A stretch of DNA of 64,000 bases from an uncultured delta proteobacterium (GTDB lineage Bacteria; Desulfobacterota; Binatia; UBA9968). The notes under the pieces are model-generated. The model saw only the letters and a list, made by a program, of their open reading frames with translations, was not told the origin of the DNA and did not search any database. Position 1 is the first letter of the stretch. Every line of letters begins with the position of its first letter. This document shows, in pieces, positions 10,302 to 64,000 of the stretch. The stretch covers positions 32,001-96,000 of the forward strand of contig CAVTUQ010000029.1 in NCBI GenBank assembly GCA_963737905.1, read 5' to 3'. A program made the translations under genes and the position numbers.

Positions 10302-10308
10302 GTTAACC

Positions 10309-10599
10309 ATGAGAGCCGTTGGTTTAAAAGTCCTCAAAAACAAGCTTAGCGAGTATGTTCGCTTGGCCGCGAGCGGCGAAACCGTACTGGTCACCGACCG
10401 CGACCGTGTAGTCGCCGAGCTGGTTCCGCCCCAAAAGAACCGCAGCCCGTTTCTGGCCGACGCATTGCTTGCTGAGGCGGTACGCCAGGGCTGGATAACC
10501 CCTCCGATGCAGCGCTCCGAAGGCCCTCCGCCACGCAAGCCGGTCATGTCCTTCCGCAAACTACTTGGTGAGCTGGAGCAGGACCGGAGCGAGCGTTGA
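10309..10599 (+). CDS. Type II antitoxin, Phd/YefM family
   Basis: MRAVGLKVLKNKLSEYVRLAASGETVLVTDRDRVVAELVP; overlaps the PIN gene by 4 nt. Confidence 0.88.
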   Translation: MRAVGLKVLKNKLSEYVRLAASGETVLVTDRDRVVAELVPPQKNRSPFLADALLAEAVRQGWITPPMQRSEGPPPRKPVMSFRKLLGELEQDRSER

Positions 10600-10982: not shown

Positions 10983-11081
10983 CGATTGTCGATTGTCGGA
11001 TAAGAGCGGAAATTCTCTTCGAGAAGCTGCATCCATGCGTCTTCTCCCCCAATCTAAAATCCCAAATCAAAAATCGAAAAT
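10983..11081. repeat. Inverted heptamer repeat element (GATTGTC / AATCNAA) enclosing a truncated SBP leader
   Basis: cgattgtcgattgtcggat ... aatctaaaatcccaaatcaaaaatcgaaaat; the minus strand has GGAG then MDAASRREFPLLSDNRQS. Confidence 0.65.
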
Positions 11082-11082
11082 G

Positions 11083-12113
11083 TTATCTGATCAACTTATT
11101 CGCCCGGGCGAGCACCTCCGGCGGAATGGTCAGGTCGATCTGCTTTGCGGTCTTAAGATTGATCACCAGCTCGAACTTCGTCGGCTGCTCGACCGGCAGA
11201 TCGGCGGGCTTGGCTCCCTTCAGGATTCTGTCCACGTAGTATGCGACGCGCCCGTAGCTGTCCGCTTGGTCCGCCCCGTAGGACATGAGCCCGCCGGTCT
11301 CTACAGCTTCTTTGTTTTTGTACACCGACGGTAACCGGCTCTTTAACGCCAAGCCAATGATCCGTTTTTCGTTGTTATTCATTAGTGGGCTCGCGGTCAC
11401 GTAGAGTCCATCCGGGCGCTGCTTGTTTAGCGCGGCGAATGCCTTCTCGAAACCGTCCGCAGCTCTTACCTCCCAAGGCTGAAGGGTCAACTTCAGGGCG
11501 CGCGCCGCGGCCGGGAGAACCTCTTTCACCTCGTGTACAGTGGTCGAAACGGCCGGATCATAGAGAACCGCGACACGGGCAAGTTGGGAACGGCTTCTTT
11601 GAGCAGTTCTAAACGCTTCCCGCCTAGTTCTCTGTCAAGGAGAGTAATGCCGGTGACGTTGCCGCCGGGACGGGCAAGGCTTTCAACATGGCCTGCTACG
11701 ACAGGATCGTTCCCAGAGCCCATCATAACGATGGGAATTGTCTTGGTCGCATTCTTGGCGGCCCGGACCACCGGCTCCGCTCCTGATACCAGAAGAATAT
11801 CAACCTTGAGACGCACTAATTCGGCCACAAGCTCAGGGTACCGATCGTTCTTCCCCTCCGCATATCGGTACTCGGTGGCGATGTTCTGTCCTTCGATGTA
11901 GCCATGCTCGCGCAGCGCCAGATATCCTATCCGCGGGACTTTCTTTGGCTGCTGCGCCTGAGCCATCGCCCCACCGAAGATGAATGTGAGAGTCATAGAG
12001 AAGATCCCCGCCCATTTTAGATTTTCGATACTTTGGCAAGGCTCAGCACAGGTTTTAGATTTTCGATTGTTGGACCGGAAACTCAAAGATCGCATCCAGG
12101 TTTTCTCATGCAT
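11083..12113 (-). pseudogene. ABC_sub_bind (PF04392-like) SBP with a frameshift and a short internal deletion
   Basis: ORFs 11526-12113 and 11083-11529 join into one gene; RIGYL-ALRE lacks about 17 codons relative to the 57998 paralogue. Confidence 0.8.
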
Positions 12114-12144
12114 TTGTTTTTCTCCAAATCTAAAATCGAAAATG

Positions 12145-13161
12145 TCATCTTATGACCCGATTCGCCCGCGAGAGAAACTCCGGCGAGAGTGTCAGACCGA
12201 TCTGTTTCGCTGCCTTCAAGTTGATCACGAATTCAAACTTCGTTGCCTGCTGCACCGGCAAATCAGCCGGTTTGGCACCCTTCAAGATCTTGTCCACGTA
12301 AACAGCCGCACGCCGATAGTTGTCAGTCGAGTCGATCCCGTAGAACATGAGACCGCCTTCATCGACATAATCCTTCGTTGGGTAAATAGCCGGCAAACGG
12401 TATTTGACGGCAAGCTCGACGATCCGCTTTCTCTCGGCGCGAAAGCGCCCACCGGCCTGCGGCATAATCGCGCCCACCTGTTTCTGCTTTGCGGTTTGGA
12501 AGGCGATTTCTAGTTTTTTGGCGTCGGGTTGAGTCTCGATCTCCTCCAGTTTTATCTTCAGTGCCACACCCGCAGGCCTGAGCTCTTTTAGTTGGGGGTT
12601 TTCTAGTTCACTCCTCTGCGTCACGAGAAATCCAACTCGGACAAGCTTGGGAACCGCGTCCTTGAGTATCTCTAGCCTTTTGGTACCTAGCTCGGGCGAT
12701 AAACCGGAGTTCCCGGTGATATTGCGTCCCGTCCGCGCCAGACTGGCAACCAAACCTTGTCCCACGGGGTCCGTAGAGGTCGCCATTACGATGGGGATGG
12801 TGCTGGTTGCTCTCTTCGCCGGTAACGACGTCCCTCCCCCTGAGATGACGATCACATCAACTTTTAGACGAACGAGTTCCGCCGCCAACTCCGGTAGCCG
12901 CTCATTTTTTTGCTCGGCAAACCGATACTCGATGGTGATGTTTTTACCTTCAATCCATCCAAGCTTGCTCAGCTCCTGCCGAAACGCCTCCCAGAGGACT
13001 GCCTGACTGGTTGCAGTGCTATTATCCAGGATACCGATGCGGAAGATTTTCCCTGTCTGTTGCGCGGCAGCGGACGCGCAAAACGCAAGGAGCATGGCGC
13101 CCACTAGGGTAAAGGCAAAGCGCATGGCGCTAGGTGCAAAAGCGATCCCGTTCCTACTCAT
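12145..13161 (-). CDS. ABC_sub_bind SBP, intact
   Basis: Signal peptide, AQQ..KI.RIG, SLARTGRNITG and [28 protein letters not shown] tail. Confidence 0.92.
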   Translation of the reverse strand: MSRNGIAFAPSAMRFAFTLVGAMLLAFCASAAAQQTGKIFRIGILDNSTATSQAVLWEAFRQELSKLGWIEGKNITIEYRFAEQKNERLPELAAELVRLKVDVIVISGGGTSLPAKRATSTIPIVMATSTDPVGQGLVASLARTGRNITGNSGLSPELGTKRLEILKDAVPKLVRVGFLVTQRSELENPQLKELRPAGVALKIKLEEIETQPDAKKLEIAFQTAKQKQVGAIMPQAGGRFRAERKRIVELAVKYRLPAIYPTKDYVDEGGLMFYGIDSTDNYRRAAVYVDKILKGAKPADLPVQQATKFEFVINLKAAKQIGLTLSPEFLSRANRVIR

Positions 13162-13218
13162 GAGTTTCTCCCCGTTTTATTTCCGCGCTATGCTTTTTGC
13201 CTTCTGCGCTCTGCCCTG

Positions 13219-13263
13219 TTAACTGATCACCTTCTCCGCCCTCGCCAGCACATTAGTCGGGAT
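13219..13263 (-). pseudogene. Orphan SBP 3' tail
   Basis: Reverse complement reads IPTNVLARAEKVIS*. Confidence 0.75.
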
Positions 13264-13272
13264 CCTATCAGC

Positions 13273-13370
13273 AAATCCGCATTCCGAATATCCAAATCCG
13301 CAAGGGGCCGTATAGAATTTTTCCTAATTGAACATTTGAATTCGTTTCGAATTTCGGATTTTTGATTTTG
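13273..13370. repeat. Degenerate inverted heptamer repeat (ATCCGMA / TTCGGAT)
   Basis: aaatccgcattccgaatatccaaatccgcaa ... ttcgaatttcggatttttgattttg. Confidence 0.55.
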
Positions 13371-13488
13371 CTAGTCACTGCCGCTCAGGATTCAAGCCAA
13401 GAAAAGCGCGGTTGGTCGCGCTGCACGGTTACGAATTGACTCGATGTCAACGATCAAATACTCTTATTCTTACGCGGAGGGATTTTCC

Positions 13489-13683
13489 ATGAAAGGGATC
13501 AAGCGCAAAAACTACTCCCTGGATGAGGCCAAGGTCAAAAAGTTGAGACGCCTTTTGAAGACCCGCAGCGATACAGAAGCAGTCCATAAGGCTGTCGACT
13601 TGGTGCTTTTCCAGCAGGAGGCAGTCAAAGCGTGGATCGAGAACGCGGGGGCGGGCGGCGTCGAAGATCTCTATGCCCGCTAA
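13489..13683 (+). CDS. Putative type II antitoxin (VapB-like)
   Basis: 64 aa after GGAGG; KRKNYSLDEAKVKKLRRLL..SDTEAV; overlaps the PIN gene; TTGACtcgatGTCAA palindrome upstream at 13436-13450. Confidence 0.75.
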   Translation: MKGIKRKNYSLDEAKVKKLRRLLKTRSDTEAVHKAVDLVLFQQEAVKAWIENAGAGGVEDLYAR

Positions 13684-14104
13684 ATATATTTTTGACACCA
13701 ACATTTATATTCACTGCCTGCAGGACCGCGCTTTTGCCCTAAGGCACGCCGACCAATATTCTCGCTTTCTGCCATTGACCTATTTTTCAAGCGTTGTGGC
13801 CCAAGAGCTCCTCGTAGGCTGCACCGATGACCTCGCTGTAAGACGGGTGCAAAACTTTTTGTTGCCTTTTGAACGGGTACGGCGCATCGTCAATCCAACC
13901 TATCAGAACTGGAAAGACGCCGGGCTGATTGTCGTCAAGATAACTCTGCGCCAGCCTAACTTGAAAAGCAAAAAAATCGCCTTGGTCAACGACACGCTCA
14001 TCGCCTTGTCATGCCGTGATATTGGCGCAACGGTTGTGACGCAGAACATAGAAGATTTTCAATTAATCCGGCGGTTTGTTAGCTTTCGCTTTCAAGAATT
14101 TTAA
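13673..14104 (+). CDS. vapC: PIN-domain toxin (VapC family)
   Basis: YIFDTNIYI, SSVVAQEL, NDTLIALS and VVTQNIEDF motifs. Confidence 0.9.
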   Translation: MPAKYIFDTNIYIHCLQDRAFALRHADQYSRFLPLTYFSSVVAQELLVGCTDDLAVRRVQNFLLPFERVRRIVNPTYQNWKDAGLIVVKITLRQPNLKSKKIALVNDTLIALSCRDIGATVVTQNIEDFQLIRRFVSFRFQEF

Positions 14105-14160
14105 TCGCCAGGCCGCTCAATTGCGCGCACTTCAGCGGCGAAAGCCGCTACTTGCCGTTC

Positions 14161-14203
14161 CACCGAATCACCTGATTCGCCCGCGCCAGCCCATTCGGGG
14201 GAT
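14161..14203 (-). pseudogene. Orphan SBP 3' tail
   Basis: Reverse complement reads IPPNGLARANQVIR. Confidence 0.7.
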
Positions 14204-14247
14204 CGCCGATCCATTTTGGATTTTCGTTTGCGGCGCCGATTGTTCGG

Positions 14248-14845
14248 TCATCGGATCACTTTGTCCGCCCGATATAGTAACGATTGCGGAATGTTACGCC
14301 GATTTGCTTCGCTGTCTTAAGATTAATGACAAGCTCGAACTTCGTTGGCTGCTCGACCGGCAGATCGGCGGGTTTAGCTCCGTTCAGGATTCTGTCCACA
14401 TAATAAGCGACGCGCCGGAAGCTTTCGTCTTGGTCGGCCCCGTAGGACAGGAGCCCGCCGCCACCGACAAATTTCTGTTGCTGTAAGCCGAAGGCAATCG
14501 CCTTTTTAACGCGAAGCCCACAATCCGTTTCTGGTTAGTAACTATTGTTGGACTGGCGCCGGCCACGTAGAGTCCATCCAGGCGCTGCTTACCCATCGCG
14601 GCAAAAACCTTATCGAAATCGTCCGGAACTCGCACCTCCCAAGGTTGGATAATCAACTTTAGTGCGTGCGCGGCCACTGGGAGAAGCTCTTTTACCTCTC
14701 GTACACCGGCCGGATTACCCAAATCGTAGAGAACCGCGACACGAGCAAGTTTGGGAACGGCTTCCTTGAGCAGCTCTAGCCCGCTTCCCGCCGAGGTCTC
14801 TCGTAAGGTTTGCAATACCGGTGACGTTGCCGCCGGGGCGGGTGA
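14248..14845 (-). pseudogene. 5'-truncated, frameshifted ABC_sub_bind SBP
   Basis: LELLKEAVPKLARVAVLYD... through FELVINLKTAKQIG..ADKVIR* across frames; N-terminal third missing. Confidence 0.8.
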
Positions 14846-45497: not shown

Positions 45498-46488
45498 ATG
45501 AGATAAGAAGAAAAAATTTATTTGCTTCGCGCTCGCCGTTGGGCTCTTGGCGATCAGCTTTTCGGTCGCGGCGCAGCAACTCGGGAAGATTGCGCGGATA
45601 GGCATTCTGCATCCTGAGCGATCTGGTGATGCAGGGGTTGAGGTCCTGATCGAGGCATTTCGCACAGGCCTTCGTAAGCTTGGCTACATTGAAGGAAAGA
45701 ACATTGTTCTTGAACACCGATTCGCTGAGGGAAAGCTGGATCGGCTCCCCGACCTCATGGCCGACTTGGTCCGCCTTAAACCTGATGTCATTTTTGCGCT
45801 GAACACCCCAGCAGCTCGCGCCGCCAAGAACGGAACAAAGACAATCCCTGTCGTATTTGTCTGGGTTGCCGATCCACTAGACCTTGTCGTTAGCCTCGCG
45901 CGGCCGGGCGGGAATGTTACGGGGCTCACCACTGTTACCGCTGATCTCAGCGGTAAACGGCTGGAGGTGCTCAAGGAGGCGCTTCCCGGCGTCTCTCGAG
46001 TGGGCGTGCTCTTGCATTCGGATAATCCCATCCCCGTACGGCTCTTCAAAGATATGGAGAATGCAAGCCCACAGTTCGGTATCCGGCTTCACGCCCTGGG
46101 TGTCCGAGATCCAGACGACCTCCAGAAGGCCTTTGAAGCCGTTGCCAAGGAGCATATAGGCGCGCTTTTTGTGATCGAAGAAGCCGTGATCGCTTCCTAC
46201 CGGAAACGCGTCCTGGAACTGGCGGCAAAGCATCGGCTGCCGACGGCGTCCCTTTACAAAGAATTTGCAGAGGCCGGGGGTCTGCTCACCTACGGAGCCG
46301 ACCTACCTGATCTGTTTCGCCGTGCTGCCACCTATATCGATAAAATTCTCAAAGGTACGAAACCTGCTGATCTGCCGGTTGAGCAGCCGACAAAGTTTGA
46401 GTTCGTGATCAACCTGAAAACCGCCAAGCAGATTGGTCTGACGATTCCGCCGAATGTGCTGGCAAGAGCGGATCGGGTGATCCAGTGA
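45498..46488 (+). CDS. ABC_sub_bind SBP (ATG at 45498 is out of frame; probable indel)
   Basis: Open frame 45502-46488; KIARIGIL, SLARPGGNVTG and the shared tail. Confidence 0.85.
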
Positions 46489-50786: not shown

Positions 50787-51641
50787 ATGAAACAGCTAAC
50801 AGCTAACGTGTTTGTGGAGACCGGACTCAAGGGCGCCAATCACGGCCTCGTGATGACTTCAGATGGCATTGTCTTGATCGACACGCCGCACAAGCCGAGC
50901 GATGCCGTGCGCCTCAGAGGAGAGATCGAGCGGCGCGGCCGGCTCCGCTACATCATCAACACCGAGCCTCACGGTGATCACTGGACTGGCAACGCGTTTT
51001 TCAACGTTCCTGTGGTTGCGCACGAAGGCGTGCGGTCCCGAATTCTGGGGACTGATCTGGCCGCGCATATTGCCCGCGTGGCATCGTTCGGACCCGACGA
51101 GCCGAAACTTCTGGAAAACTACAAACCCAATGCGCCGGTGATCACGTTTCAGAGCGAAATGACCTTGCACGTGGGCAATCACACGTTCCATATGATTCAC
51201 ATGCCCGGCCACACGCCGTACCAAGCAGCAGTGATCGTGCTGGAAGAGGGCATCGTCTTCACCAGCGACAACATCTTCTGCAAAGTACAGACCTGGCTCC
51301 AAGAAGCTAACCCGGACCATTGGCTGAAAGCGCTCGAATCGCTGCGAGCGCTGCGCGAGGAGACTTTTGTCCCCGGTCATGGACCGGTGTGCGATAAGAA
51401 ATATCTGGACGAACAAGGCTCGTTCATTCGCGAATGGGTAGATTATGTGCGCGGCGGGATCGAACGCGGGATGACCAAAGAAGAGTCCGTCGCCAACCTG
51501 ACGGCGATGACGGACAGGTATCCAATGGATGTCGGTCAAGACGGCATGTCACCCCACGTGATGCGTCTGAACGTCGCCAATCTTTACGACTACCTGACCG
51601 GTGCGGGGATCCACAAACGGGACAATAAGGGTGGGCAGTAA
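50787..51641 (+). CDS. Metallo-beta-lactamase fold hydrolase (cyclase-like)
   Basis: INTEPHGDHWTGN, PGHT, FTSD and VPGHG motifs. Confidence 0.9.
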   Translation: MKQLTANVFVETGLKGANHGLVMTSDGIVLIDTPHKPSDAVRLRGEIERRGRLRYIINTEPHGDHWTGNAFFNVPVVAHEGVRSRILGTDLAAHIARVASFGPDEPKLLENYKPNAPVITFQSEMTLHVGNHTFHMIHMPGHTPYQAAVIVLEEGIVFTSDNIFCKVQTWLQEANPDHWLKALESLRALREETFVPGHGPVCDKKYLDEQGSFIREWVDYVRGGIERGMTKEESVANLTAMTDRYPMDVGQDGMSPHVMRLNVANLYDYLTGAGIHKRDNKGGQ

Positions 51642-51677
51642 GCAGAGAGCGGTTAGCGGTAAAAAGGGAGACGACCT

Positions 51678-51968
51678 ATGAGTAAGAGAACGATTTGCCT
51701 TGCTCTAAGCGCTTTGCTCTTTGCACTTTGCTCGTCCGTCGAGGCACAGCAACCAGCGAACGTTCCGCGCATAGGCTTCATCAGTGCTACACCGATTTCC
51801 GCTATCCAGGCCCGCATCGAGGCATTCCGGCAGGGATTGCTCCAGGTCGGGTACCAGCAGGGGAAAAATATCTTCATCGAATATCGAGATGGTGAAGGAA
51901 AACCGGATCATATCCCGGTACTCGCGGCCGAGTTGGTGCGTCTCAAGGTAGACGTTATCGCCAGTTAA
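51678..51968 (+). pseudogene. Array copy 1: truncated ABC_sub_bind SBP
   Basis: Leader plus [25 protein letters not shown]. Confidence 0.8.
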
Positions 51969-52023
51969 CACTGGACAATGGCCGGTTATCAGTTGGAAGA
52001 ATAAGAGGAGTGAAAATGATGAA

Positions 52024-53011
52024 ATGGAAAAATCGCTTATCTGCTTACTGGCAACTCTCTTGCTGATAACTGTTTCGTCCGTCGGAGGCGCAGCAGTTAC
52101 CGACGAAAGTCGCCCGGATAGGATTCCTATCATTGCTGTCATCCCCGTCCGCTGCCGCGGCCCGCACGGAAGCTTTCCGGCAAGGTCTGCGCGAGCTTGG
52201 TTACGTTGAGGGGAAAAACATCGTCATTGAGTCGCGATATGCAGAGGGAAAACTCGATCGCCTTCCAGCGCTCGCGGCCGAATTGGTGCGTCTCAAGGTA
52301 GACATCATCGTCACGGCCGGTGGGCAAGCAACCCGCGCCGCCAAGGAAGCAACCCCTACGATTCCTATTGTCATGACGAACGATCCCGATCCCGTTGGCT
52401 CCGGGTTCGTCGCCAGTCTCGCGCGGCCTGGTGGAAACATTACTGGCTTGTCCACGCTTGCCCCGGAGTTAAGCGGAAAACGACTGGAGCTTCTCAGAGA
52501 GGTCGTCCCTAAGCTCTCTCGCGTGGCCATCGTCGGGACTTCAACCCAACCGGGCCACGCGCAAGCGATAAAAGAGCTGGAACTCGCCGCAAAGTCGTTC
52601 AAGGTGCAGATTCAATATTTAGATGTTTTAGAGTCCAAGGATATCGAAACTGCATTTCGAGCCGCAGCCAAGGGGCGGGCTGACGGAGTCCTCACGCTAA
52701 CGAGCCCCATCCTCCGTTCTCAGCGAGCACAGCTTGCAGACCTTGCGGTAAAGAACCGGATCCCCGCGATATACAACGACATCCAGTTTGTAGAAGCCGG
52801 GGGACTTATCTTCTACGGCGTGAGCTTTCTCGACTTGGACCGCCGCGCCGCCACGTATGTCGACAGAATTTTAAAGGGCGCCAAACCTGCTGATCTCCCC
52901 GTGGAGCAACCCACCAAGTTCGAGTTCATCATCAATCTGAAAGCCGCCAAGCAGATCGGCCTGACGATTCCGCCGAATGTGCTGGCGCGAGCGGACAAGG
53001 TCATAAGATGA
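52024..53011 (+). CDS. Array copy 2: ABC_sub_bind SBP (indels near 5' end)
   Basis: Leader ORF at 52024 plus body ORF 52133-53011. Confidence 0.85.
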
Positions 53012-53059
53012 CGAAGGGCCAAGCGCAGAGAGCAAAGAGCAAGAAACGGGAGAAACCTG

Positions 53060-54051
53060 ATGCGAAGAAACGATATTGTTTTTACGCTTAGCGCTATGCT
53101 CTTTGCGCTTTGCTCATCGCGCCGAAGCGCAGCAGCCGAAGAAAATCCCTGCGATCGAATACCTAACCGCTATCCCTCGTACCTCGCTCGGCGCAGCTCC
53201 CCGCATCGAGGCCTTCCGGCAGGGGTTGCGCGAGCTTGGTTACCTAGAAGGGAAAAACATTTTCATTGAGTGGCGATGGGCAGCGGGAAAACAAGATAGT
53301 CTGCCCGGACTTGCGGCCGAGCTCGTTGAGTCTCAAGGTAGACATCATCGTCTCAGGTGGTTCGACGGCAACCCAGGCCGCCAAGGATGCGACGAGCACG
53401 ATTCCCATTGTCATATCGCAGGACAACGATCCTTTGGCGAACAGGTTTGTCGCCAGTCTGGCCCGGCCCGGTGGAAACATCACCGGTCTGGCTACACTCA
53501 GATCTGAGGTGAGCGGAAAACACATGGAGATCCTTAAGGAGATCGTTCCGAAGCTCTCCCGCATCGCCGTGTTGGGAACTTCGAACAATCCGGGCAATGC
53601 CCAAGCGCTAAAAGAAATTGAACTCGCCGCTGATGCGCTCAATGTGCAGCTGCAAATCCTCGACGTTCTGCTTCCCAAAAACATCGAGGTTGCATTTCGC
53701 ACCGCAATCAAGGGGCGTGCCGACGGCATCCTCGCACTGGCGAGTCCCGTTTTGAATTCCCATCGAACCCAGGTTGTCGATCTCGCGGTCAAGAGCCGCC
53801 TTCCGGCGATCTATGACAGGCGAGAATTTATCGATGCCGGGGGGCTGATGACTTACGGCGTGAGCGTCGTTGATATGGACCGACGCGCTGCGGTCTTTGT
53901 CGACAAAATTTTGAAAGGCAGAACTCCGGCCGAACTTCCGGTAGAGCAGCCAACGAAGTTTGAATTCATCGTCAATCTCAAAGCCGCGAAAGCGATCGGC
54001 TTGATGATCCCGCCGAACGTGTTGGCGCGTGCGGACAAAGTAATTCGGTGA
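53060..54051 (+). CDS. Array copy 3: ABC_sub_bind SBP (frameshifted)
   Basis: Three overlapping frames (53060, 53076, 53266) reconstruct the full gene. Confidence 0.85.
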
Positions 54052-54111
54052 GAAGTAAAAAAATGAGACGTAAATAAAACGGAGAGCGCGGGCAAAATCG
54101 GGGGAGCGAAA

Positions 54112-55095
54112 ATGATGCGTAGACAAATCTTTGTTTGGTTACTGACCACTTTGTTACTGGCAACTGTTTCCGCCCACGCGCAGCAGCCGGCGAAAATTCC
54201 GCGAATTGGCTTTGAGTCCGACTCACCGGTGACGTCAATTGCCGCGCGAGTCGATGGATTCCGCCAGGGTCTGCGCGAGCTTGGTTACGTCGAGGGGAAG
54301 AACATTTTAATCGAGTGGCGCGCCGCAGAATTGAAGCCCGAGCGGCGCAGCGAGATCGCTGCCGAGCTGGTGCGTCTGAAAGTCGATCTTATCGTCTCGG
54401 CTGGGCCGACGATAACGCGCACTCTGAGGGAAGCGACGACGACGATACCGATTATTATGGCGCAAGATACCGATCCAGTTGGCAGCGGCTTCGTTGCAAG
54501 CTTGGCGAAACCCGGAGGTAACATTACGGGTTTTTCCGCTCTCTCACCGGAGATGAGCGGCAAACAATTGGAACTCATGAAAGAAATCATCCCCAAAATC
54601 TCGCGTGTAGCGGTGATTGGCAATTCGACCAATCCCGGTGACGCACAAGCACTGCGTGAGACTGTGCTAGCGGCGGGTGCATACGAAATCTATCTGCGAT
54701 ACCTGGAGGTCCAAGATGCCAAGGATGTCGAGCCGGTGCTGCGCTCCGCCGTCAAGGGGCGCGCCGACGCACTCATAGTGCTGGGCAATCCGATCCTCAA
54801 TCGCAATCGTCAACAAGTTGTCGATCTTGCCGCCAAGCTCCGCTTACAGGCGGCGTACGCGCGACCTGAGTTTGTCGAGGCGGGTGGTCTGATGACTTAC
54901 GGCACCAACTATCCCGAACTTTTCCGTCGCGCCGCTACTTATGTCGACAAAATATTAAAGGGCGCCCAGCCCGCCGATCTGCCCGTTGAACAACCGGAGA
55001 AGTTTGAGTTCATCGTCAATCTGAAAGCGGCAAAGCAGATTGGACTTACGATTGAGCCCAACGTGCTGGCGCGGGCGGATCGGGTGATTAGATGA
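54112..55095 (+). CDS. Array copy 4: ABC_sub_bind SBP, intact
   Basis: 327 aa with signal peptide and the shared tail. Confidence 0.92.
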   Translation: MMRRQIFVWLLTTLLLATVSAHAQQPAKIPRIGFESDSPVTSIAARVDGFRQGLRELGYVEGKNILIEWRAAELKPERRSEIAAELVRLKVDLIVSAGPTITRTLREATTTIPIIMAQDTDPVGSGFVASLAKPGGNITGFSALSPEMSGKQLELMKEIIPKISRVAVIGNSTNPGDAQALRETVLAAGAYEIYLRYLEVQDAKDVEPVLRSAVKGRADALIVLGNPILNRNRQQVVDLAAKLRLQAAYARPEFVEAGGLMTYGTNYPELFRRAATYVDKILKGAQPADLPVEQPEKFEFIVNLKAAKQIGLTIEPNVLARADRVIR

Positions 55096-55223
55096 AAGCG
55101 CTACGCGTGTTCCAATGGTTTCAAACGTTCGAATGGTGTTAGTACGGATTGGACAAACGCGTTGCGAGAGCGTGAAGCGGTGAGTGGAGGCCTGTCATTG
55201 TAAAGCAAACCCGGAGGGAACCG

Positions 55224-56204
55224 ATGCCGACACATGTTTTTCTCATTGTTTTAACCTTTGTCATTGCGCTTAGTCTCCCCGCCCAGGCGCAGCAGCCGGC
55301 GAAGGTCCCGCGGATCGGATACCTGAGTGGCGTTTCCCCTGCCGCAGAAGCCGCGCGCCGCGATGCGTTCAACCAGGGGCTGCGCGAGCTAGGCTATATC
55401 GAGGGCAAGAGCGTCGTCGTCGAATATCGCTATTAGGGGGAAAATCGGATCGCCTCGCTTCGTTGGTGGCGGAGCTGCTGCAGCTCAAGCCGGACATCAT
55501 CGTCACCGGCGGCAGTCCGTCGACGCGCGCCGCCAAGGCGGCGACCGCCACGATCCCTATTGTGATGACGAATGATCCCGATCCCGTAGCCAACGGATTA
55601 ATCGCTAGCCTGGCGCGACCAGGTGGCAACATCACGGGATTATCCACTCTCGCTCCGGAGCTGAGCGGCAAAAGATTGGAGAAATTAGGAGAAGTACGTT
55701 CCCAATCTTTCTCGCGTCGCCATCCTCGGGACCTCGACGAGCCCGGCCTACCGGCCCGTCAAGAAAGAGATCGATCTAGCCGCTAACGCTCTCAAGCTTC
55801 AGCTTGACTACCAAGACGTGTTGGATTTTAAGGATATCGAGTCTGCCTTTCGAGCCGCGGTCAAAGGGCGCGCCGACGCAGTCATGACACTCAACAGCGG
55901 GATCCTCAATTCCCAGCGAAGCCAGATCGTAAACCTCGCGGCAAAGCATCACTTTGCCACGATTTATACCCAGGCCGAATTCGTGGAAGTTGGCGGGCTG
56001 ATGTTCTACGGCGTGAACCTGGTCGATCTGTCGCGCCGCGCCGCAACCTATGTCGACAAGATTCTCAAAGGCGCCAGACCTGCCGACATTCCTGTCGAGC
56101 AAGCAAAGAGGTTCGAGTTCATCATCAATCTAAAGGCAGCGAAGCAGATCGGTCTGACGATCCCGCCCAACGTGCTGGCGAGAGCGGACAAGGTCATAAG
56201 ATAG
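55224..56204 (+). CDS. Array copy 5: ABC_sub_bind SBP (frameshifted)
   Basis: Fragments at 55224, 55463 and 55818. Confidence 0.85.
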
Positions 56205-56251
56205 CAAAGGGCCAAGCGCAGAGAGCAAAGAGCAGAAACGGGAGAAACCTC

Positions 56252-57236
56252 ATGCGAAGAAACGATATTGTTTTTACGCTTAGCGCTATGCTCTTTGCGC
56301 TTTGCTTTTCCGCTCAGGCGCAGCAACCGACGAAAGTCGCCCGGATAGGATTCCTACTTGCTGTCTCCCCGTCTGCTGCCGCGGCCCGCACGGAGGTTTT
56401 CCGGCAAGGTCTGCGCGAGCTTGGGTACGTGGAGGCGAAAAACATCGTCATTGAATCGCGATATGCAGAGGGAAATTTCGATCGCCTCCCGGCGCTCGCG
56501 GCCGAACTGGTGCGTCTCAAGGTAGACATCATCGTCACGGCCGGCGGGCAAGCAACCCGCGTCGCCAAGGAAGCAACCCCTACGATTCCCATTGTCATGA
56601 CGAACGATCCCGATCCCGTTGGCTCCGGGTTCGTCGCCAGTCTCGGGCGCCCGGGTGGAAACATTACTGGCTTGTCCACGCTTGCCCCGGAGTTAAGCGG
56701 AAAACGACTGGAGCTTCTCAGAGAGGTCGTTCCTAAGCTCTCCCGCGTTGCCATCGTCGGGACTTCAACCCAAGCGGGCCACGCGCAAGCGATAAAAGAG
56801 CTGGAACTCGCCGCAAAGGCGTTCAAGGTGCAGATTCAATATCTAGATGTTTTAAAGTCCAAGGATATCGAGACTGCATTTCGAGCCGCAGCCAAGGGGC
56901 GGGCTGACGGATTGCTCACGCTAACGAGCCCCATCCTCCGTTCTCAGCGAGCACAGCTTGCAGACCTTGCGGTGAAGAACCGGATCCCCGCGATATACAA
57001 CGACATCCAATTTGTGGAAGCTGGGGGACTTATCTTCTACGGCGTGAGCTTTCGCGACTTGGACCGGCGCGCTGCAACTTACGTGGACAAGATTCTCAAA
57101 GGGCGCTAAGCCCGCCGATCTTCCGGTCGAGCAACCGACGAAATTCGAGTTCATCATCAATCTGAAAGCCGCCAAGCAGATTGGCCTGACAATCCCGCCG
57201 AATGTGCTGGCGCGGGCGGACAGAGTCATTCGGTGA
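56252..57236 (+). CDS. Array copy 6: ABC_sub_bind SBP (frameshift near 57100); body nearly identical to copy 2
   Basis: ORF 56252-57109 plus tail ..ADRVIR* ending at 57236. Confidence 0.88.
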
Positions 57237-57290
57237 GGTGTGAGCCGACAGGATGAGGGGGCTAGGAGAACGAATGATGGGTCGAAATCA

Positions 57291-57689
57291 TCACACAATA
57301 CCCGACGCAATCGGCTCGAACGTCACTCTACGGGCGTGGTCGTTGAAACAAACCTCGAACTGGTTGAACACTCCGGTTCGGCCGAGAAGATTAAATCCAA
57401 CACCGAGCCGCTCAGAGAAACCGATCGGCGCCGTAATTTGCGTGCCGCCGATTTGGACTGGAAGATCGTGAATAAAAGTAGGAATATAGCTCCCGTCGCC
57501 AACCACGATCATCTGATGCCTGCCCGCGCGCCAATCGATACCGATGCGTGCCGCTTCATCGACGTTCAGCATGCTAAACGTCGCCCCAGAGTCAACAAAA
57601 ACCCAGAGCCTGTGGGCATGGATGGAGATGGGTACAATGGGCATCAAATAGCCCCGGTGACGCGTGTAAGGAAATTCTATAGCAGGCAC
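57291..57689 (-). CDS. Retropepsin-like (clan AA) aspartyl protease
   Basis: FVDSGATFS catalytic motif and NLLGR motif; 132 aa. Confidence 0.85.
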   Translation of the reverse strand: MPAIEFPYTRHRGYLMPIVPISIHAHRLWVFVDSGATFSMLNVDEAARIGIDWRAGRHQMIVVGDGSYIPTFIHDLPVQIGGTQITAPIGFSERLGVGFNLLGRTGVFNQFEVCFNDHARRVTFEPIASGIV

Positions 57690-57886
57690 GCCATGTCCTC
57701 TTCCCGCGGGACACGAAGCACGGATGGCATCTTGTTAGGTTCAATCTCACGCGCCTTGCTCTCCACTTCTTTTCCGGAATCCCCAACGGCCACCAAAGTC
57801 TCATTTACCACGGCGACATACTTTCCGGCATATTTCGTCACCAGCTCGCTGAAGTGGTCGACAATCCAAAGATCGTCTTTATCCAT
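57677..57886 (-). CDS. DUF5678-like small protein
   Basis: WIVDHFSELVTKYAGKYVAVVNETLVAVGDS..EV...A; overlaps the protease gene. Confidence 0.75.
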   Translation of the reverse strand: MDKDDLWIVDHFSELVTKYAGKYVAVVNETLVAVGDSGKEVESKAREIEPNKMPSVLRVPREEDMACLL

Positions 57887-57997
57887 CGTCTTTTCCCTTC
57901 TGCTCCAGACACTTTTCGACCTTAACTCTAAATTGTCTGCGGTCTGCGAGTCAACCTTATCTCGGGTCAATTGTAGCGATTTGATCGGGGTGAGTCC

Positions 57998-58990
57998 ATG
58001 AAGAGAACTATCCTGATTTTGGCATTCGGTTTTATTCTTATGATCGACTTCGTTTCCGCCGACGCGCAGCAGCCGAAGAAAGTCACCCGAATTGGGTATC
58101 TATCGTCGCAAGACCCAGCTTATGAGTCTGCCCGTGCCGAGGGGATTCGGCTGGCACTTCGCGAGCTCGGCTACATGGAAGGACAGAACATCGCCATCGA
58201 GTATCGGTATTCGGAGGGGAAGACCGATCGGGCTTCAGAGCTTGCGGCCGAGTTGGTGCGTCTCAACGTCGATATTATCGTGGTAGCAGGAGGGATCATA
58301 TGGATCAGGGCGGCCAAGAATGCAGCCAAGTCGATTCCCGTCGTCATGGCGGGCATTGGAAACGACCCTGTCGAAGCAGGCCTGATTGAAAGCCTTGCCC
58401 GTCCAGGCGGCAACGTCACAGGTCTTACAAACCTTACGGGAAAATTGGCTGGCAAGCGGCTGGATCTCCTCAAAGAAGCTGTTCCCAAGCTTGCCCGTGT
58501 CGCGGTTCTTTACCAACCCGCCACTCCGGCTAATGTGCTCGAGGTAAACGAGGATCTTCCAGTTGCGTCGCGTGTTCTGAAGTTGACGGTTCAGCCTTGG
58601 GAGGTACGAGCTGCGGAGGGTTTTGACGGGGTATTCGATGCGCTAAACAAGCAGCGCCCGGATGGACTCTACGTGGCGGGCAGCCCGCTCACAAATGCTA
58701 ACCAAAAACGGATCGCGGGATTGGCATTAAAGAGCCGGTTACCGTCGGTGTTTGCCGAGAGAGGAGCTGTAGACGCCGGTGGGCTCATGTACTACGGGGC
58801 GGACCTCGCAGACAGCTACCGGCGCGTCGCCTATTACGTGGACAGAATCTTGAAGGGCGCCAAGCCGGCTGATTTGCCTGTTGAGCAGCCAACGAAGTTC
58901 GAGTTGGTGATTAACCTCAAGACCGCGAAGCAGATCGGCGTAACGATTCCGCCGCAGCTGCTCGCCCGGGCGAGTAGGCTCATCAAGTGA
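57998..58990 (+). CDS. Array copy 7: ABC_sub_bind SBP, intact
   Basis: 330 aa; same subfamily as the 11083 and 14248 copies (QPWEVRA..KQRPDGLYV). Confidence 0.92.
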   Translation: MKRTILILAFGFILMIDFVSADAQQPKKVTRIGYLSSQDPAYESARAEGIRLALRELGYMEGQNIAIEYRYSEGKTDRASELAAELVRLNVDIIVVAGGIIWIRAAKNAAKSIPVVMAGIGNDPVEAGLIESLARPGGNVTGLTNLTGKLAGKRLDLLKEAVPKLARVAVLYQPATPANVLEVNEDLPVASRVLKLTVQPWEVRAAEGFDGVFDALNKQRPDGLYVAGSPLTNANQKRIAGLALKSRLPSVFAERGAVDAGGLMYYGADLADSYRRVAYYVDRILKGAKPADLPVEQPTKFELVINLKTAKQIGVTIPPQLLARASRLIK

Positions 58991-60008
58991 GAAGGGGTGA
59001 CAAAGTGGATCGAGGCATAGAAAAATACACGAAGAAAAAAGTCACGGTCGTTATTCTTTGCGCCATGCTCTTTGCGCTTTGCCCGCCCGCCGAGGCGCAG
59101 CAGCCGAAGAAAATCCCACGGATAGGTTACTTGGGTGCCTTCACCCCTTCCGCTGGCGCCTCCCTCCTTGAAGCTTTCCGCCAAGGGCTGCGCGAGCTTG
59201 GCTACGTGGAGGGCCGGAAGACTTCATTGATTACCGCTGGGCGGAGGGAACGCCCGATCGGTTCCCAGCCCTTGCCGACGAGCTGATCAATCTCAGGGTA
59301 GACGTGATCGTTACACAGAGCAACGCAGCGGTGGCAGCTCTTCAGCAGGCGACCCGAACCGTACCCATCGTCGTGGCGGGTATGGGCGATCCTGTTGAGA
59401 GCGGCTTCGTCGGCAGCCTCGCGCGGCCGGCCGGGAACATTACCGGCTTCTCAAATCAAGCCGAAGAGGTCGCAGGCAAATGGGTGGAGCTACTCAGGGA
59501 GGCCGTGCCCAAGATTCCCGCATCGCCGTCCTCGCAGTTTCCCAGACCTCGTCCCACCGCACCTATTGGGCACAGATCCAAGCGACGGCCCAAGCGTTGA
59601 AGGTGACTCCCCAGCGCCAAGAGGTGGTGGGACCGGACGAGATCGAGCACGCCTTCGCGAACCTCACCAAGGGCCATCCCCAGGGGCTCATCGTACTGCC
59701 GCATGCTGTCACCATCGAACGTCGAACGCAGATCGTGGACCTGTCAGCAAAGAACCGGCTGCCGGGGATGTACCCCTTTAGCTTGTTGTGGAGTCCGGTG
59801 GCCTCATGTCCTACGGGACGAACTTGGCTGACCTGCACCGGCGGGCCGCCACCTACGTGGGCAAGATTTTGAAAGGCGCGAAACCCGCAGACCTTCCGGT
59901 CGAGCGGCCAATAAGTTCGATTTCATCATTAATCTGAAAGCGGCCAAGCAGATCGGTCTCACGATCCCACCAAATGTACTGGCCAGAGCTGACAAAGTAA
60001 TTCGATGA
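58987..60008 (+). CDS. Array copy 8: ABC_sub_bind SBP (several frameshifts)
   Basis: Fragments at 58987, 59304 and 59480 plus tail ending in TGA at 60008; start uncertain. Confidence 0.8.
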
Positions 60009-61026
60009 AACATCGCAAAGCGCCTGCGGAGAAACGCCGGAGAAGTCATGGGAGAAAAGTCTTCATTGGCTTAACGCTCGGCGCCTTGCTTTTTGTCTTA
60101 TGCCCATGCGCCCATGCGCAACAGCAAGCCAGGATACCTAAGATCGGCTGGCTCTCAGCCCGCCGCGCTTCAAACACTGGCCAAGAAATTATCGTCCGTA
60201 TGCTGCGTGACCTCGGCTACGTTGAAGGCAAGAACGTAGTTTTCGAGTATCGATTCGCGGATGATAAGCTCGACCGGCTTCCCGCCCTTGCCGATGAGTT
60301 GGTCCGCCTCAAGGTCGATGTTCTCCTCACGCCCGGAACTCCCGGCGCCCTAGCTCTAAAAAAAGCTACCCGGACTATCCCCATCGTTTTTTTAGACGCC
60401 ACGGACCCCGTTGCGGCTGGACTGGTTGATAGCTTAGCTCGACCCGGGGGAAACATCACGGGGTTCAGCAGCATCGAGGCAATGTTGGCTGGCAAACGTC
60501 TCGAGTTACTCAAGGAAACCGTTTCGAAAATTTCTCGGGTTGCGGTCCTGTGGGATCCTCGGAATCCAGCCTCTATACAGGAATGGAAAGAGAGCCAACT
60601 CGCGGCCCGGGAACTCGGCCTGCAACTTCATTCTATGGAAGTAAGCAGCGCCGACAAATACCAGGACGCGTTCAAAGAGGCCATCAGGGCGCGTAGCGGC
60701 GCTCTTGCCGTGTTGTCGACCCCATTGGCCTCTTCCAATCAAGACCAGCTCGCGGAGCTGGCGGCGAGAAATCGGTTGCCGGCGATTTACGTCCAGGGAA
60801 GTTTTATTATCGATGGAGGTTTGATGTCCTATGGACCCGACCGCACCGAACGCTACAGGCGCATAGCGGTTTTTGTCGACAAAATTCTCAAAGGTACAAA
60901 ACCAGCCGATCTCCCGGTGGAGCAGCCGAACAAGTTCGAGTTCATCATAAATCTCAAAGCCGCAAAGCAGATCGGATTAACAATACCACCGAATGTATTA
61001 GCCAGAGCTGACAAAGTAATCCGATG
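60005..61026 (+). CDS. Array copy 9: ABC_sub_bind SBP, intact
   Basis: 340 aa; ATGA overlap with copy 8. Confidence 0.92.
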
Positions 61027-61033
61027 ATCGAAC

Positions 61034-61116
61034 AATCTAAAATCCAAAATCGAAAATCTAAAATAGTAGGGATTCCGCCGAACGTGTTGGCGAGGGCGGA
61101 TCGGGTCATAAGATGA
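61034..61116 (+). pseudogene. Heptamer repeat joined to an orphan SBP 3' tail ('empty site')
   Basis: aatctaaaatccaaaatcgaaaatctaaaat-agtaggg-ATTCCGCCGAACGTG..ATAAGATGA ([14 protein letters not shown]). Confidence 0.8.
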
Positions 61117-61162
61117 AAGTTACGATTTTCATTGTCGATTTTAGAGTGAGGGAGACAAAAAC

Positions 61163-62209
61163 ATGACTAAGAAAACTCGAGCGACGATCCGATGGGTTCC
61201 ATCCGACAATCGGAAATCTAAAATCGAAATCGAAAATGGTGGGGATCCTAGGCATCTTTTTCACTGTGTGCTTGTTAGCGCGGGGGTTCAAGCGCAGCAG
61301 CCAACCAAAGTGCCCCGGATAGGATATCTAAGTGGGGCCTCCTCTTCCACAATCGCGGCTCGCATCGAGGCATTCCGGCAAGGGCTGCGCGAGCTTGGTT
61401 ATATAGAAGGGAAAAACATTATCATCGAATGTCGATATGCAGAGGGAAAAGCTCGATCGCCTTCCGGCGCTCGCGGCCGAGCTAGTGCGTCTCAAAGTGG
61501 ACGTGCATCTGTCTGCCGGGGCAGCGGTCACCGGTCCTGCTAAGGAACGCCACGGAGACAATCCCTATTGTCATGGCTCAGGATACCGATCCTGTCGGAA
61601 ACGGGTTCGTCGCCAGCCTTGCGCGACCTGGCGGAAACATTACCGGACTCTCCTCCTATTCACCGGAGATAAACGGAAAACGAGTAGAGCTTCTTAAGGA
61701 GATCGTACCTAAGCTTTCCCGCTTAGCCGTGCTCGGGCAGTCAACCTATCCAGGCAACTCCCAAGCGTTAAAAGAAACGGAACTCGCCGCAGAAGCGCTG
61801 AAGTTACAGCTCCAATACCTAGACGTGTAAGATCCAAGGACATCGAGACGGCGTTTCGAGCAGCAAGCAAGACGCGTGCCGGCGGAGTCCTCGTGCTGCA
61901 GAACAATGTCCTCAATTCTCAGCGAAAACAAACTGTTGATCTCGCGATAAAGAACCGACTTCCGACGATCTACCACGTTCCAGAATTTTTGGAAGCGGAG
62001 GGCTGATAAGTTACGCGGCGAGCATCAACGACTTGTACCGGCGCTCCGCCACATACGTGGACAAGATTTTGAAAGGCGCCAAGCCTGCCGACCTCCCGGT
62101 GGAGCAGCCGATCAAGTTCGAGTTCGTCATCAATCTGAAAGCGGCCAAGCAGATTGGATTAACCATTCCACCCAACGTTTTGGCTAGAGCAGACAAAGTC
62201 ATAAGATGA
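61163..62209 (+). pseudogene. Array copy 10: ABC_sub_bind SBP (multiple frameshifts and stops)
   Basis: Fragments at 61163, 61437 and 61573 plus tail ending at 62209. Confidence 0.8.
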
Positions 62210-62326
62210 CGGTGAGTAGTGAGCAGAAAGCGGTGAGCAGCGGAAAACGCGGAAGGCAACCCACAAGTAAGAACGTCTTTTTTACTGGGACTTCAGGCAT
62301 TCCTGTGAAGTCGGACTCGGAGATTG

Positions 62327-62413
62327 CACCGCGAAGGCGCGGAGGACGCGGAGTAAAGAGTTCTTGATTAAAAAATTCTCCGATCTCTGCGAACTCGGCG
62401 CCTCTGTGGTGAA
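62327..62413. repeat. Inverted nonamer element CACCGCG..CGCGGAG / CTCTGCG..GTGGTG
   Basis: caccgcgaaggcgcggaggacgcggag ... ctctgcgaactcggcgcctctgtggtga. Confidence 0.75.
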
Positions 62414-62462
62414 TACTTTTTCACAGAAAACCCGGAACAACCTTTTTACTAAGGAGGATCCT

Positions 62463-63455
62463 ATGAAGGCAATGATTTTGGCAATGAGCCTGGTTACCTC
62501 GATTTCTTTTTGCACCGCCGTCTCGGCTCAGCTCACTAAAGTGATCATCGGCAACAACACGCTCAGCACCAACGGTCTTCCCGCGTGGATGGCCAAGGAA
62601 GCCGGGATATTTCGCAATAACGGCCTCGATGTCCAGATCGTCTATTTCCGAGGAGGAACTATTACGGCCATGGCTTTGATCGCCCGCGAGACTCCGATCA
62701 GCCAGGTTTCCGGGCCGCCGATCGTGAGCGCTGCTCTCAAGGGAGCCGACGCGGTCATGGTTGCAGCCGGCAACGTGGTCTCAGAGTATTGGCTCATGAG
62801 CAAGCCCGAGCTCAAGACCGGCGCGCAGCTCAAGGGAGGCTCGGTTGCCATCGCTACCTTCGGTGGCTTGTCCGATTCTCTCTCTCGGGTTGCGCTTCAG
62901 AAGCTTGGATTGAATCCTGTGAAGGATGTCACCCTCGTGCAGATCGGAACGATCCCGGAGCGCTTGAGCGCGTTAGAGTCGGGAAAGGTTCAGGCCGCGA
63001 TGCTCAACGCACCCGACAACTTCCGGGCCCAGAAAAGAGGGCTGTATAAATTAATTGAGGTGCGCCTTCCTTACCAGGGCATCGGGGTGGGAACGACGCG
63101 CACATTCATCAGGGAAAATCCCGACGTTGTCCGGCGCTATGTCAAATCTCAGGTCGAAGCCGTTCACCGCCTCAAGACCGACCGGGAAGGAGGAATCAAG
63201 GTATTGGGGAAATATCTCAACATACCGGACCGAGAGGTCCTGGAAAGAGCCTACGATGACGCAATTACTGATGAGAAATTTCCCCCAAAACAGTACCCGA
63301 GCCTGGAGGGAATCAAAAAGATTCTCGAACCGCTGGCGGAGACGGACCCAAAAGCAAAAGCCGCGAAACCCGAGGACTTTGTCGATATGCGCTTCATTAA
63401 GGAACTGGACGACAGCGGTTTCATCGACGAGCTTTACAAGGGCAGGAAACGTTAG
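62463..63455 (+). CDS. NMT1/SsuA-like SBP
   Basis: AAGGAGG RBS; WMAKEAGIFRNNGLDV and AKPEDFVDMRFIKELDDSGFI. Confidence 0.9.
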   Translation: MKAMILAMSLVTSISFCTAVSAQLTKVIIGNNTLSTNGLPAWMAKEAGIFRNNGLDVQIVYFRGGTITAMALIARETPISQVSGPPIVSAALKGADAVMVAAGNVVSEYWLMSKPELKTGAQLKGGSVAIATFGGLSDSLSRVALQKLGLNPVKDVTLVQIGTIPERLSALESGKVQAAMLNAPDNFRAQKRGLYKLIEVRLPYQGIGVGTTRTFIRENPDVVRRYVKSQVEAVHRLKTDREGGIKVLGKYLNIPDREVLERAYDDAITDEKFPPKQYPSLEGIKKILEPLAETDPKAKAAKPEDFVDMRFIKELDDSGFIDELYKGRKR

Positions 63456-63521
63456 TGAACCGGCGTCCAGCGGTCGCGAGATGCCAAGCGCTCGGTTTGG
63501 GCGGCCAGGGTGACCAGTTAA

Positions 63522-63690
63522 CCCTGTTCCGACATTGATTCGACCATTACGATGATTCTTCCCCTCTGCAACCGAGTGAAGATCTGGCCTTGTCGATGTT
63601 TCACCAGGGGTGAGGTTTTGATAGCATCGCATTAGCGAACGTTTGGCTATAGTCATTCCAAATTTACGGGTTTTTATTGTCGGAACAGGG
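63522..63690. mobile_element. MITE with CCCTGTTCCGACA terminal inverted repeats and TTAA flanks
   Basis: TTAA-CCCTGTTCCGACA ... TGTCGGAACAGGG-TTAA; 169 bp, no transposase. Confidence 0.8.
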
Positions 63691-63740
63691 TTAACAGTAA
63701 GCAGAGAGCAGTGAGCAGTAAAAACAAGAGGAGCCAAACA

Positions 63741-64000
63741 ATGATGAGAAAGTTTAATGTCCGCTTACTGCTTACTGTCTTCCTGCTTACTGTTTCTTTC
63801 GCCGAGGCGCAGCAGCCAACGAAAATCCCGCGGATAGGTTATGTCGCCACTACTGCTCCCGATACACCTAACAACTTGGCATTCCGACGAGGACTGCGAG
63901 ACCTCGGTTATATTGAAGGGAAAAACATCCTGGTTGAGGATCGCTACGCCGCGGGAAAAGCGGACCGCATCCCTAACCTTGTGGCGGAACTGGTGCAAAT
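63741..64000 (+). CDS. Array copy 11: ABC_sub_bind SBP, runs off the window end
   Basis: GAGGAG RBS; MMRKFNVRLLLTVFLLTVSFAEAQQPTKIPRIGY. Confidence 0.88.
   Translation, partial: MMRKFNVRLLLTVFLLTVSFAEAQQPTKIPRIGYVATTAPDTPNNLAFRRGLRDLGYIEGKNILVEDRYAAGKADRIPNLVAELVQ

Follow-up and report, generated by a model that had tools for sequence, protein, structure and literature searches.

We analysed a 64,000-nucleotide (nt) stretch of DNA from an uncultured delta proteobacterium (hereafter the window, G000:C29:32001-96000) that ends in a head-to-tail array of genes encoding substrate-binding proteins of the ABC_sub_bind family (PF04392), at positions 51640-64000. We consider it likely that this tandem array consists of old, diverged paralogues which were made mosaic by general homologous recombination, without a dedicated recombinase. 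It is not the undescribed mobile system that a sequence-only reading had proposed as a candidate. The genome is a metagenome-assembled genome (MAG) of 6.7 Mb in 46 contigs, with 87% completeness and 6.7% contamination, and one array protein has its closest public relatives in records titled Candidatus Binatia or uncultured delta proteobacterium.

To detect the units, we derived a DNA profile (924 positions) from 54 intact paralogues and ran it on the contigs of the genome; for the array genes, open reading frame (ORF) listing, Pfam and tblastn were used in addition. Between 51640 and 64000, this profile found ten full-length PF04392 units (u2-u6 and u8-u12), one head fragment (u1) and one orphan tail, all on the plus strand. 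The eleven head-bearing units agree with the 11 head-to-tail paralogues with diverged bodies that had been read from the sequence. The array extends past the window end, where u12 is followed by three more units up to C29:99763, giving 13 full-length units in total. Nucleotide identity among the bodies is 49-74%, with the exception of u2/u6 (92%). Pfam E-values of the array units range from 1e-10 to 6e-55, and the intact units u4, u8 and u10 score 187, 146 and 176 bits against a PF04392 cut-off of 25.9 (profile positions 12-293). Each unit has its own ribosome-binding site and its own putative signal peptide; the N-termini, read by eye from the translations, are hydrophobic and end in ..A-x-A-QQP. 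The array comprises:

51678..51968, plus strand: orphan head u1, a 96-amino-acid ORF (profile match 51736-51960, positions 2-226 of 924) that covers the signal peptide, AQQP..RIG and roughly 75 codons from the start of a PF04392 unit before it is truncated.
52024..53011, plus strand: u2, full-length (profile match 52084-53008); its signal peptide (ATG 52024) is out of frame with the mature part, and its body is 92% identical to u6.
53060..54051, plus strand: u3, full-length (profile match 53120-54047), with two frame breaks, one in the signal peptide/AQQP interval and one at profile position 203.
54112..55095, plus strand: u4, intact, 327 amino acids (profile match 54170-55092); nearest relative L010 in another genome, 88% nt identity.
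55224..56204, plus strand: u5, full-length with two single-base frame breaks (profile match 55279-56201).
56252..57236, plus strand: u6, mosaic (profile match 56310-57232), with one extra base at ~57101.
57998..58990, plus strand: u8, intact, 330 amino acids (profile match 58056-58986).
58987..60008, plus strand: u9, full-length with four single-base deletions (profile match 59087-60004).
60005..61027, plus strand: u10, intact, 340 amino acids (profile match 60109-61023); its ATG overlaps the u9 stop codon.
61066..61114, plus strand: orphan tail comprising the final ~16 codons of a unit (profile match 61071-61112, positions 882-923).
61163..62212, plus strand: u11, full-length with four single-base frame breaks and one in-frame stop (profile match 61286-62205).
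63711..64000, plus strand: u12, start of an intact 330-amino-acid unit (profile match from 63799) that runs off the window.

Recombination among these copies is real. Unit u6 combines the head of u3, the body of u2 and a third tail: over the body it shares 95-98% identity with u2, and the closest matches of the final 140 nt are in other units. The junction between u5 and u6 (tail end, spacer and signal peptide) duplicates that between u2 and u3, with ~5 of ~125 aligned columns differing when counted by eye. Similarly, u9 matches a unit of a different array (C7:405845-406798) at 92-93% identity, with the match confined to the stretch between the signal-peptide core and a point shortly before the stop codon. 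These two pairs are the closest, and their tails show roughly tenfold the synonymous divergence of their middles (dS of 0.78 versus 0.12 for u2/u6 and 1.10 versus 0.07 for u9/C7), and the tail was less alike than the middle in 20 of the 21 pairs that are at least 85% identical in the middle. Applying the maximum chi-square method to eight pairs, we found a 3' change-point at columns 758-889 in seven and a 5' change-point at columns 33-68 in five, while a control pair between genomes gave no significant change-point. That is, the ends of the units have a different history from the bodies. The change-point zones are also the family's most conserved nucleotide blocks (mean pairwise nt identity of 0.72 in the tail versus 0.55 in the body). 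The reassorted modules noted in the sequence-only reading were confirmed, and gain, loss and reassortment by homologous recombination are supported as a process, given the mosaics, the head and tail remnants and the change-points clustered at the conserved ends.

The simplest reading of the mechanism is general homologous recombination. Arrays would grow, shrink and turn mosaic through unequal crossing-over and ectopic gene conversion, and no dedicated recombinase or attC-like site would be involved. Because the bodies are only ~50-70% identical, exchange would start and resolve in the few conserved nucleotide blocks, namely head and tail, so that the units look cassette-like and orphan heads and tails remain. 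One may go further and regard head and tail as built-in recombination anchors. The ~80 paralogues per genome would then form a self-shuffling library of receptor modules selected for evolvability. Ligand-binding bodies, signal peptides and tails would be exchanged inside an array and from one array to another, the tails so often that they are uncoupled from their bodies at every time-scale. Taken as a whole, we regard this proposal as quite unlikely.

A conserved AQQP..RIG start and a conserved ~150-bp tail had been described from the sequence, and both were recovered in the array as repeats: ten copies of a 42-nt head segment (64-100% identity, repeat family D11) and nine copies of a tail of ~147 nt (66-100% identity, repeat family D3). 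However, they are protein constraints of the whole family, not array-specific recombination signals, and we found no evidence for a dedicated system built on them. The units share 45 invariant columns with homologues labelled Betaproteobacteria, Rokubacteria and Gemmatimonas, including RIG and ..D-ILKG--P-D-PVEQ.., many of which fall in the head block and the C-terminal ~50 residues. Among the 54 intact paralogues, pairwise residue identity is 0.66-0.77 in the tail versus 0.23-0.68 elsewhere, and codon identity at same-residue sites amounts to 0.42-0.48 in the tail and 0.33-0.47 in the body. Tail dN/dS is 0.02-0.13, and tail synonymous identity is 0.469 in this array versus 0.454 between arrays. 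Since the synonymous sites are as diverged as in the body and the block is conserved across phyla, conservation of the ~150-nt tail reflects purifying selection at the protein level and is not explained by a site in the DNA or by homogenisation. Concerted evolution of tails in this genome was considered separately and ruled out (synonymous identity of 0.454 within the genome versus 0.462 between genomes). The same kind of selection maintains the head as well as the tail. The conserved tail is the C-terminal module of the PF04392 family. The conserved head, made up of the signal-peptide end, AQQP and the first RIG segment, probably marks the signal-peptidase site and the first beta-strand.

Beyond this array, the whole genome yields 127 Pfam PF04392 matches. 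At the DNA level, the profile resolved 83 full-length units, seven halves and 39 smaller fragments, with 54 intact ORFs of 300-400 amino acids among the units. Fourteen clusters hold at least three units or fragments, and the largest runs of full-length units lie on contigs C27 (14), C29 (13) and C7 (9). The 46 remnants are 24 tails, 14 heads and eight internal pieces; some units have lost the middle and retained head and tail. Of the 13 array units, 11 have their nearest relative outside C29, on a different contig or, like u4, in a different genome. Matches at E<=1e-30 were found in 23 of 24 same-family genomes (a tally that takes in the unpublished genomes G006 and G012), in three of five genomes of family f2 and in none of 11 of family f3, and many same-family genomes contain at least 20 PF04392 matches each. 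The PF04392 expansion is thus old and lineage-wide. Two other arrays of the genome enclose genes for 23S rRNA intervening-sequence proteins (PF05635; C27:7735-8163 and C7:408058-408474). In the window itself, the mirror array noticed at 10.1-14.9 kb was recovered by DNA profile and Pfam as four minus-strand pieces, and one solitary unit was detected:

10114..14845, minus strand: mirror array, consisting of the next four pieces.
10114-10161, minus strand: tail fragment.
11086-11964, minus strand: near-full unit with one frame break.
12145-13161, minus strand: intact 338-amino-acid unit (profile match 12149-13073).
14252-14845, minus strand: partial unit.
45547..46488, plus strand: solitary intact PF04392 unit upstream of hydantoinase A/B genes.

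Could the units be integron-like cassettes that a site-specific recombinase moves via the conserved tail or spacer? Integron cassettes encode unrelated functions and are mostly promoterless, with an attC site after each and an integrase beside the array. The likeness to chromosomal integrons lies in the head-to-tail layout of gene-sized units, the single orientation, the short spacers (mostly 40-130 nt from stop to next start, holding the ribosome-binding site) and the occurrence of similar units in different places, such as the near-identical bodies of u9 and its C7 counterpart; the genome also encodes an integron integrase. Here, however, all units belong to one protein family, and the exchange boundaries lie within genes, not at unit ends. 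The tail is coding and conserved across phyla, with free synonymous sites. None of the eight tail-plus-spacer stretches folded better than shuffles as single-stranded DNA (z -0.80 to +1.48), attC having been assessed by folding against shuffles only. The one integrase above the TIGR02249 cut-off (456 bits, C7:226498-227442) lies at least ~68 kb from any unit, the nearest being a fragment at C7:296030; the same search found no integron integrase on C29, and a repeat scan of the 20 kb upstream of the C7 integrase revealed no obvious attC array. When ORFs up to 8 kb from the 14 arrays were clustered without bias, NMT1-like (10 of 14) and Amidohydro_2 (6 of 14) came out as recurring families and no recombinase family recurred, with rve and DDE_Tnp_1 transposases at two of 14 arrays each. 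Likewise, the five Y1/HUH transposase matches of the genome all lie outside C29, C27, C7 and C2. The integron-like explanation is therefore already largely refuted, and we consider it extremely unlikely. Programmed variation, with broken or truncated units acting as silent gene-conversion donors that vary the binding specificity of expressed units, seems very improbable too. It is suggested by the mosaics, by the conserved blocks flanking variable bodies and by the many broken copies and fragments adjoining intact ones, and in the recombination-guiding blocks and mosaic genes the array recalls pilE/pilS, vlsE and msp2. Unlike those families, the PF04392 units have neither a single expression site nor systematically truncated silent copies, and no host-immune context. 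In the broken units, start, signal peptide and ribosome-binding site are all retained, and the breaks themselves are probably errors. The paralogues are old and stable, with orthologues in other genera (u4/L010, 88%), and an initiating element such as a G4 sequence or a recombinase was neither sought nor seen.

The frame breaks bear on two further explanations. Six of the ten full-length units in the range are frame-broken, with one single-base break each in u2 and u6, two each in u3 and u5 and four each in u9 and u11; u4, u8, u10 and u12 are intact. Genome-wide, frame-shifting indels occur in 32 of the 83 full-length units, and 85 of the 115 events are single-base. If most of these units were true pseudogenes of a birth-and-death family, only ~4 functional genes would be left here. 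In favour of such decay, breaks are ~6 times commoner per gene than in control families (32/83 versus 5/~77), there are genuine remnants (the 46 fragments, some with large internal deletions), and u11 carries an in-frame stop. Contigs of four public runs were compared with 51001-64000; the best run contained only 0.17 of the sampled words. Contigs of run X1, which are 98-100% identical to parts of this range, insert a base at 59221, 59785, 59912 and 61993, that is, at four of the five covered break sites (three of the four u9 deletions and one u11 deletion). Few substitutions accompany them, and the indel-to-substitution ratio is too high for neutral decay. Break-carrying units keep full length and conserved motifs and score 640-795 bits like intact ones, and dN/dS is 0.11-0.14 in u2/u6 and u9/C7, even though these pairs consist of 'broken' units only. 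With the sequencing technology of comparison loci taken from contig names, units with frame-shifting events number 8 of 53 in apparent short-read loci, mostly compensated or terminal, versus 15 of 33 in 'MFD ... contig_N' loci. Since X1 fills four of five sites, the units keep their motifs and arrays of apparent short-read origin have hardly any uncompensated breaks, most single-base frame breaks are probably consensus errors, not decay, and we think a mainly decaying array somewhat unlikely. Far less probable still is an assembly artefact, in which paralogues of several metagenome strains were joined into a chimera or collapsed, although the MAG has 6.7% contamination, contigs C25, C41 and C42 end within units and indel errors are concentrated in arrays. 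With differences of 26-50% between units, a collapse is unlikely; independent assemblies (L002, L003, L005, L010 and L013) contain comparable arrays of 10-16 units; and the X1 contigs match several stretches at 98-100%.

Two candidate patterns in these data were rejected. A sequence motif common to the indel sites was not supported, as the 60 single-base events are evenly spread along the gene, with only a few at GATC when judged by eye. The many apparent 'joints' in runs X3, X5 and X7 were not accepted as order variants: their sides are 20-39 letters at head and tail motifs, often with foreign letters between, and they derive from other paralogues or organisms. No joints were present in the X1 contigs on 51001-64000. 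The break pattern of the PF04392 arrays was also seen in three of the 22 CoA_transf_3 genes (C9:182345-184649, C15:65840-68137 and C39:124507-127285), which are split and each adjoin an intact tandem paralogue.

Several observations weigh against the account of old paralogues shuffled by general recombination and broken mainly by sequencing errors. In the arrays L002:129-13948 and L003:598-13984, tail synonymous identity is 0.64 and 0.60 versus 0.42 and 0.41 in the body (window array, 0.47 versus 0.40); such homogenised tails suggest that tail-directed gene conversion can be strong in these related lineages. Among the 22 genome copies of a short motif of the AAAATCGAAAATC/TCTAAAATCGAAAATC type, 11 lie within 300 bp of PF04392 units, a zone covering 2% of the genome. 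In the 87%-complete genome, no transporter of the single-permease PF04392 type was seen. Run X1 agrees with the window at the u6 break (57101), which also speaks for decay, and each X1 difference comes from a single contig at a depth below 5. Control families of the same genome have few split genes (0 of 35 TctC, 3 of 22 CoA_transf_3 and 2 of ~20 AMP-binding). Since a uniform error rate leaves the 32 of 83 unexplained against these controls, some breaks may be real decay, or errors may concentrate in paralogue arrays. Finally, no public-run contig spans 51001-64000, and the unit order is as in one MAG assembly.

The array also contains inserted genes and repeats:

57291-57689, minus strand: retropepsin-like aspartyl protease gene (Asp_protease_2, Pfam E 2e-5).
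57677-57970, minus strand: DUF5678 gene (Pfam E 6e-13), overlapping its neighbour.
61122..61240, no strand: inverted pair of the AAAATCGAAAATC-type motif, bracketing the u11 ribosome-binding site and start (fold z -1.77).
61047-61065, 61122-61145, 61215-61240 and 12129: copies of the TCTAAAATCGAAAATC motif in the window.
62276..62447, no strand: palindromic repeat of ~170 nt, resembling a miniature inverted-repeat transposable element (MITE) or repetitive extragenic palindrome (REP), interspersed with >35 genome copies.
62364..63455, plus strand: NMT1-like binding protein gene within the array; its true start is likely the ATG near 62462, after GGAGG.
51628-51665, 62209-62246 and 63687-63724, with an inverted copy at 52040-52061: CAGTRAGCAG-type repeat.

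The DUF5678 and Asp_protease_2 genes interrupt the array between u6 and u8. They form the inverted gene pair that had been called toxin-antitoxin-like: two overlapping minus-strand ORFs at 57291-57970, which fit that description in layout only, with families assigned from Pfam alone. The MITE seen in the array is indeed a dispersed palindromic repeat with internal inverted symmetry; it has >35 matches at 85-96% identity on many contigs and a predicted hairpin (z -2.68). The short, often inverted repeats in the spacers proved real as well, but they are genome-wide REP/MITE-like elements. The motif TCTAAAATCGAAAATC has its 22 genome copies at <=1 mismatch and is often an inverted pair flanking ribosome-binding site and start codon. 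Some unit N-termini contain it in frame, as ..SDNRKSKIEN.., and it also occurs near AMP-binding domains (C26:191894 and 195154), in an apparently coding context. The CAGTRAGCAG-type repeat follows the stop codons of the metallo-beta-lactamase (MBL)-fold gene, u11 and the NMT1-like gene, and its inverted copy lies just upstream of the u2 mature part. Between the hydantoinase B and MBL-fold genes, at 50598-50786, there are short repeats of type GCGCTCTTTGCGCCTTTGCGCGAG; across this family and order, many genomes have 30-40-nt stretches that match them at 90-100%. At the hydantoinase B gene, the nearest genome available for comparison has 85% nt identity. An Rfam search of 50500-64000 gave nothing at gathering score, two sub-threshold matches being taken as chance, and promoter and terminator scans found no excess (six promoter-like sites versus 6.2 expected).

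PF04392-type transporters are defined by an adjacent cognate ATPase and a single PF02653 permease, and the family members of solved structure (3lkv, 3lft and 6hni) are single genes beside a dedicated permease and ATPase. The 83 units are of the same sequence family and would likewise encode exported binding proteins, but without a dedicated transporter nearby. Pfam and ORF annotation revealed no permease and no ATPase in the window, and the genome has nine PF02653 permease matches at four loci against its 83 full-length units. The two of these loci that lie near units were examined, and each is a complete Liv-type operon that encodes a Peripla_BP_6 protein itself. Because there are only nine PF02653 matches and the examined loci have their own Peripla_BP_6, most of the 83 proteins appear to be orphan binding proteins. 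They would probably pass ligands to a few shared membrane partners, hence 'orphans', and the diverged bodies would bind different small organic ligands. Unit u4 matches 3lkv with E 1.9e-35 (residues 43-323), 3lft with 1.1e-25 and 6hni with 1.6e-22; Table 1 of PMC10443332 gives L-Phe, L-Trp and L-Tyr as the ligands of these three proteins. Neighbouring genes encode two hydantoinase/oxoprolinase sets, a metallo-beta-lactamase-fold hydrolase, Amidohydro_2, UbiD-like decarboxylases, an FAA hydrolase, CoA-transferases and a Rieske/LigXa-like oxygenase. They suggest catabolism of aromatic or N-heterocyclic acids, and the neighbourhood would fit uptake or sensing of such compounds.

Elsewhere, the window holds further binding-protein paralogues (four tandem NMT1-like, more NMT1-like and one TctC-like) and a molybdopterin oxidoreductase gene together with SelB and SelA genes:

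17159-21462 (minus strand), 25315-26292, 30758-38884 (plus strand) and 43857-44834: further NMT1-like and TctC-like genes.
1912-4225, minus strand: formate-dehydrogenase-like molybdopterin oxidoreductase gene, with an in-frame TGA at 3632-3634 (context R-V-TGA-H-S) and a frame break near 2430-2448.
40213-43693, minus strand: SelB and SelA genes.

As SelB (40213-42132) and SelA (42290-43693) are encoded in the window, the TGA at 3632-3634 probably specifies selenocysteine.

The array is a lineage-specific expansion of largely orphan binding proteins, analogous to those of the tripartite tricarboxylate transporter (TTT; TctC/Bug) family. According to PMC5994714, Rhodoplanes sp. Z2-YC6860 has 434 orphan TTT binding proteins, with tandem arrays that reach nine genes and show low identity, Bordetella has 79-181 TTT binding proteins and at most four membrane components, and lineage-specific expansions are also found in Cupriavidus. 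A word search of that paper found neither 'recombination' nor 'pseudogene'. In both expansions, paralogous binding-protein genes number from tens to hundreds against few membrane components; the tandem arrays have low identity, duplications are within-genome as well as older, and partners and ligands are mostly uncharacterised. They differ in the family (ABC-type PF04392 here versus PF03401) and in the phylum, the relatives here being named Candidatus Binatia. The arrays are also longer here (13 and 14 full-length units), and mosaic units and change-points at conserved ends were measured. Full-text literature searches, supplementary files aside, returned no paper on PF04392 expansions or Binatia binding-protein expansions, and those on binding-protein gene conversion no paper describing this case.

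For apparent long-read assemblies, our results indicate that tandem paralogue arrays can hold many spurious single-base frame breaks, so that pseudogene counts and 'shuffled cassette' impressions from raw sequence call for read-level checks. The array is also a measurable example of how conserved coding blocks may channel recombination in a bacterial multigene family. Orphan binding-protein expansion, so far a matter of the TTT/Bug proteins of Proteobacteria, would now extend to PF04392 and to an uncultured soil lineage.

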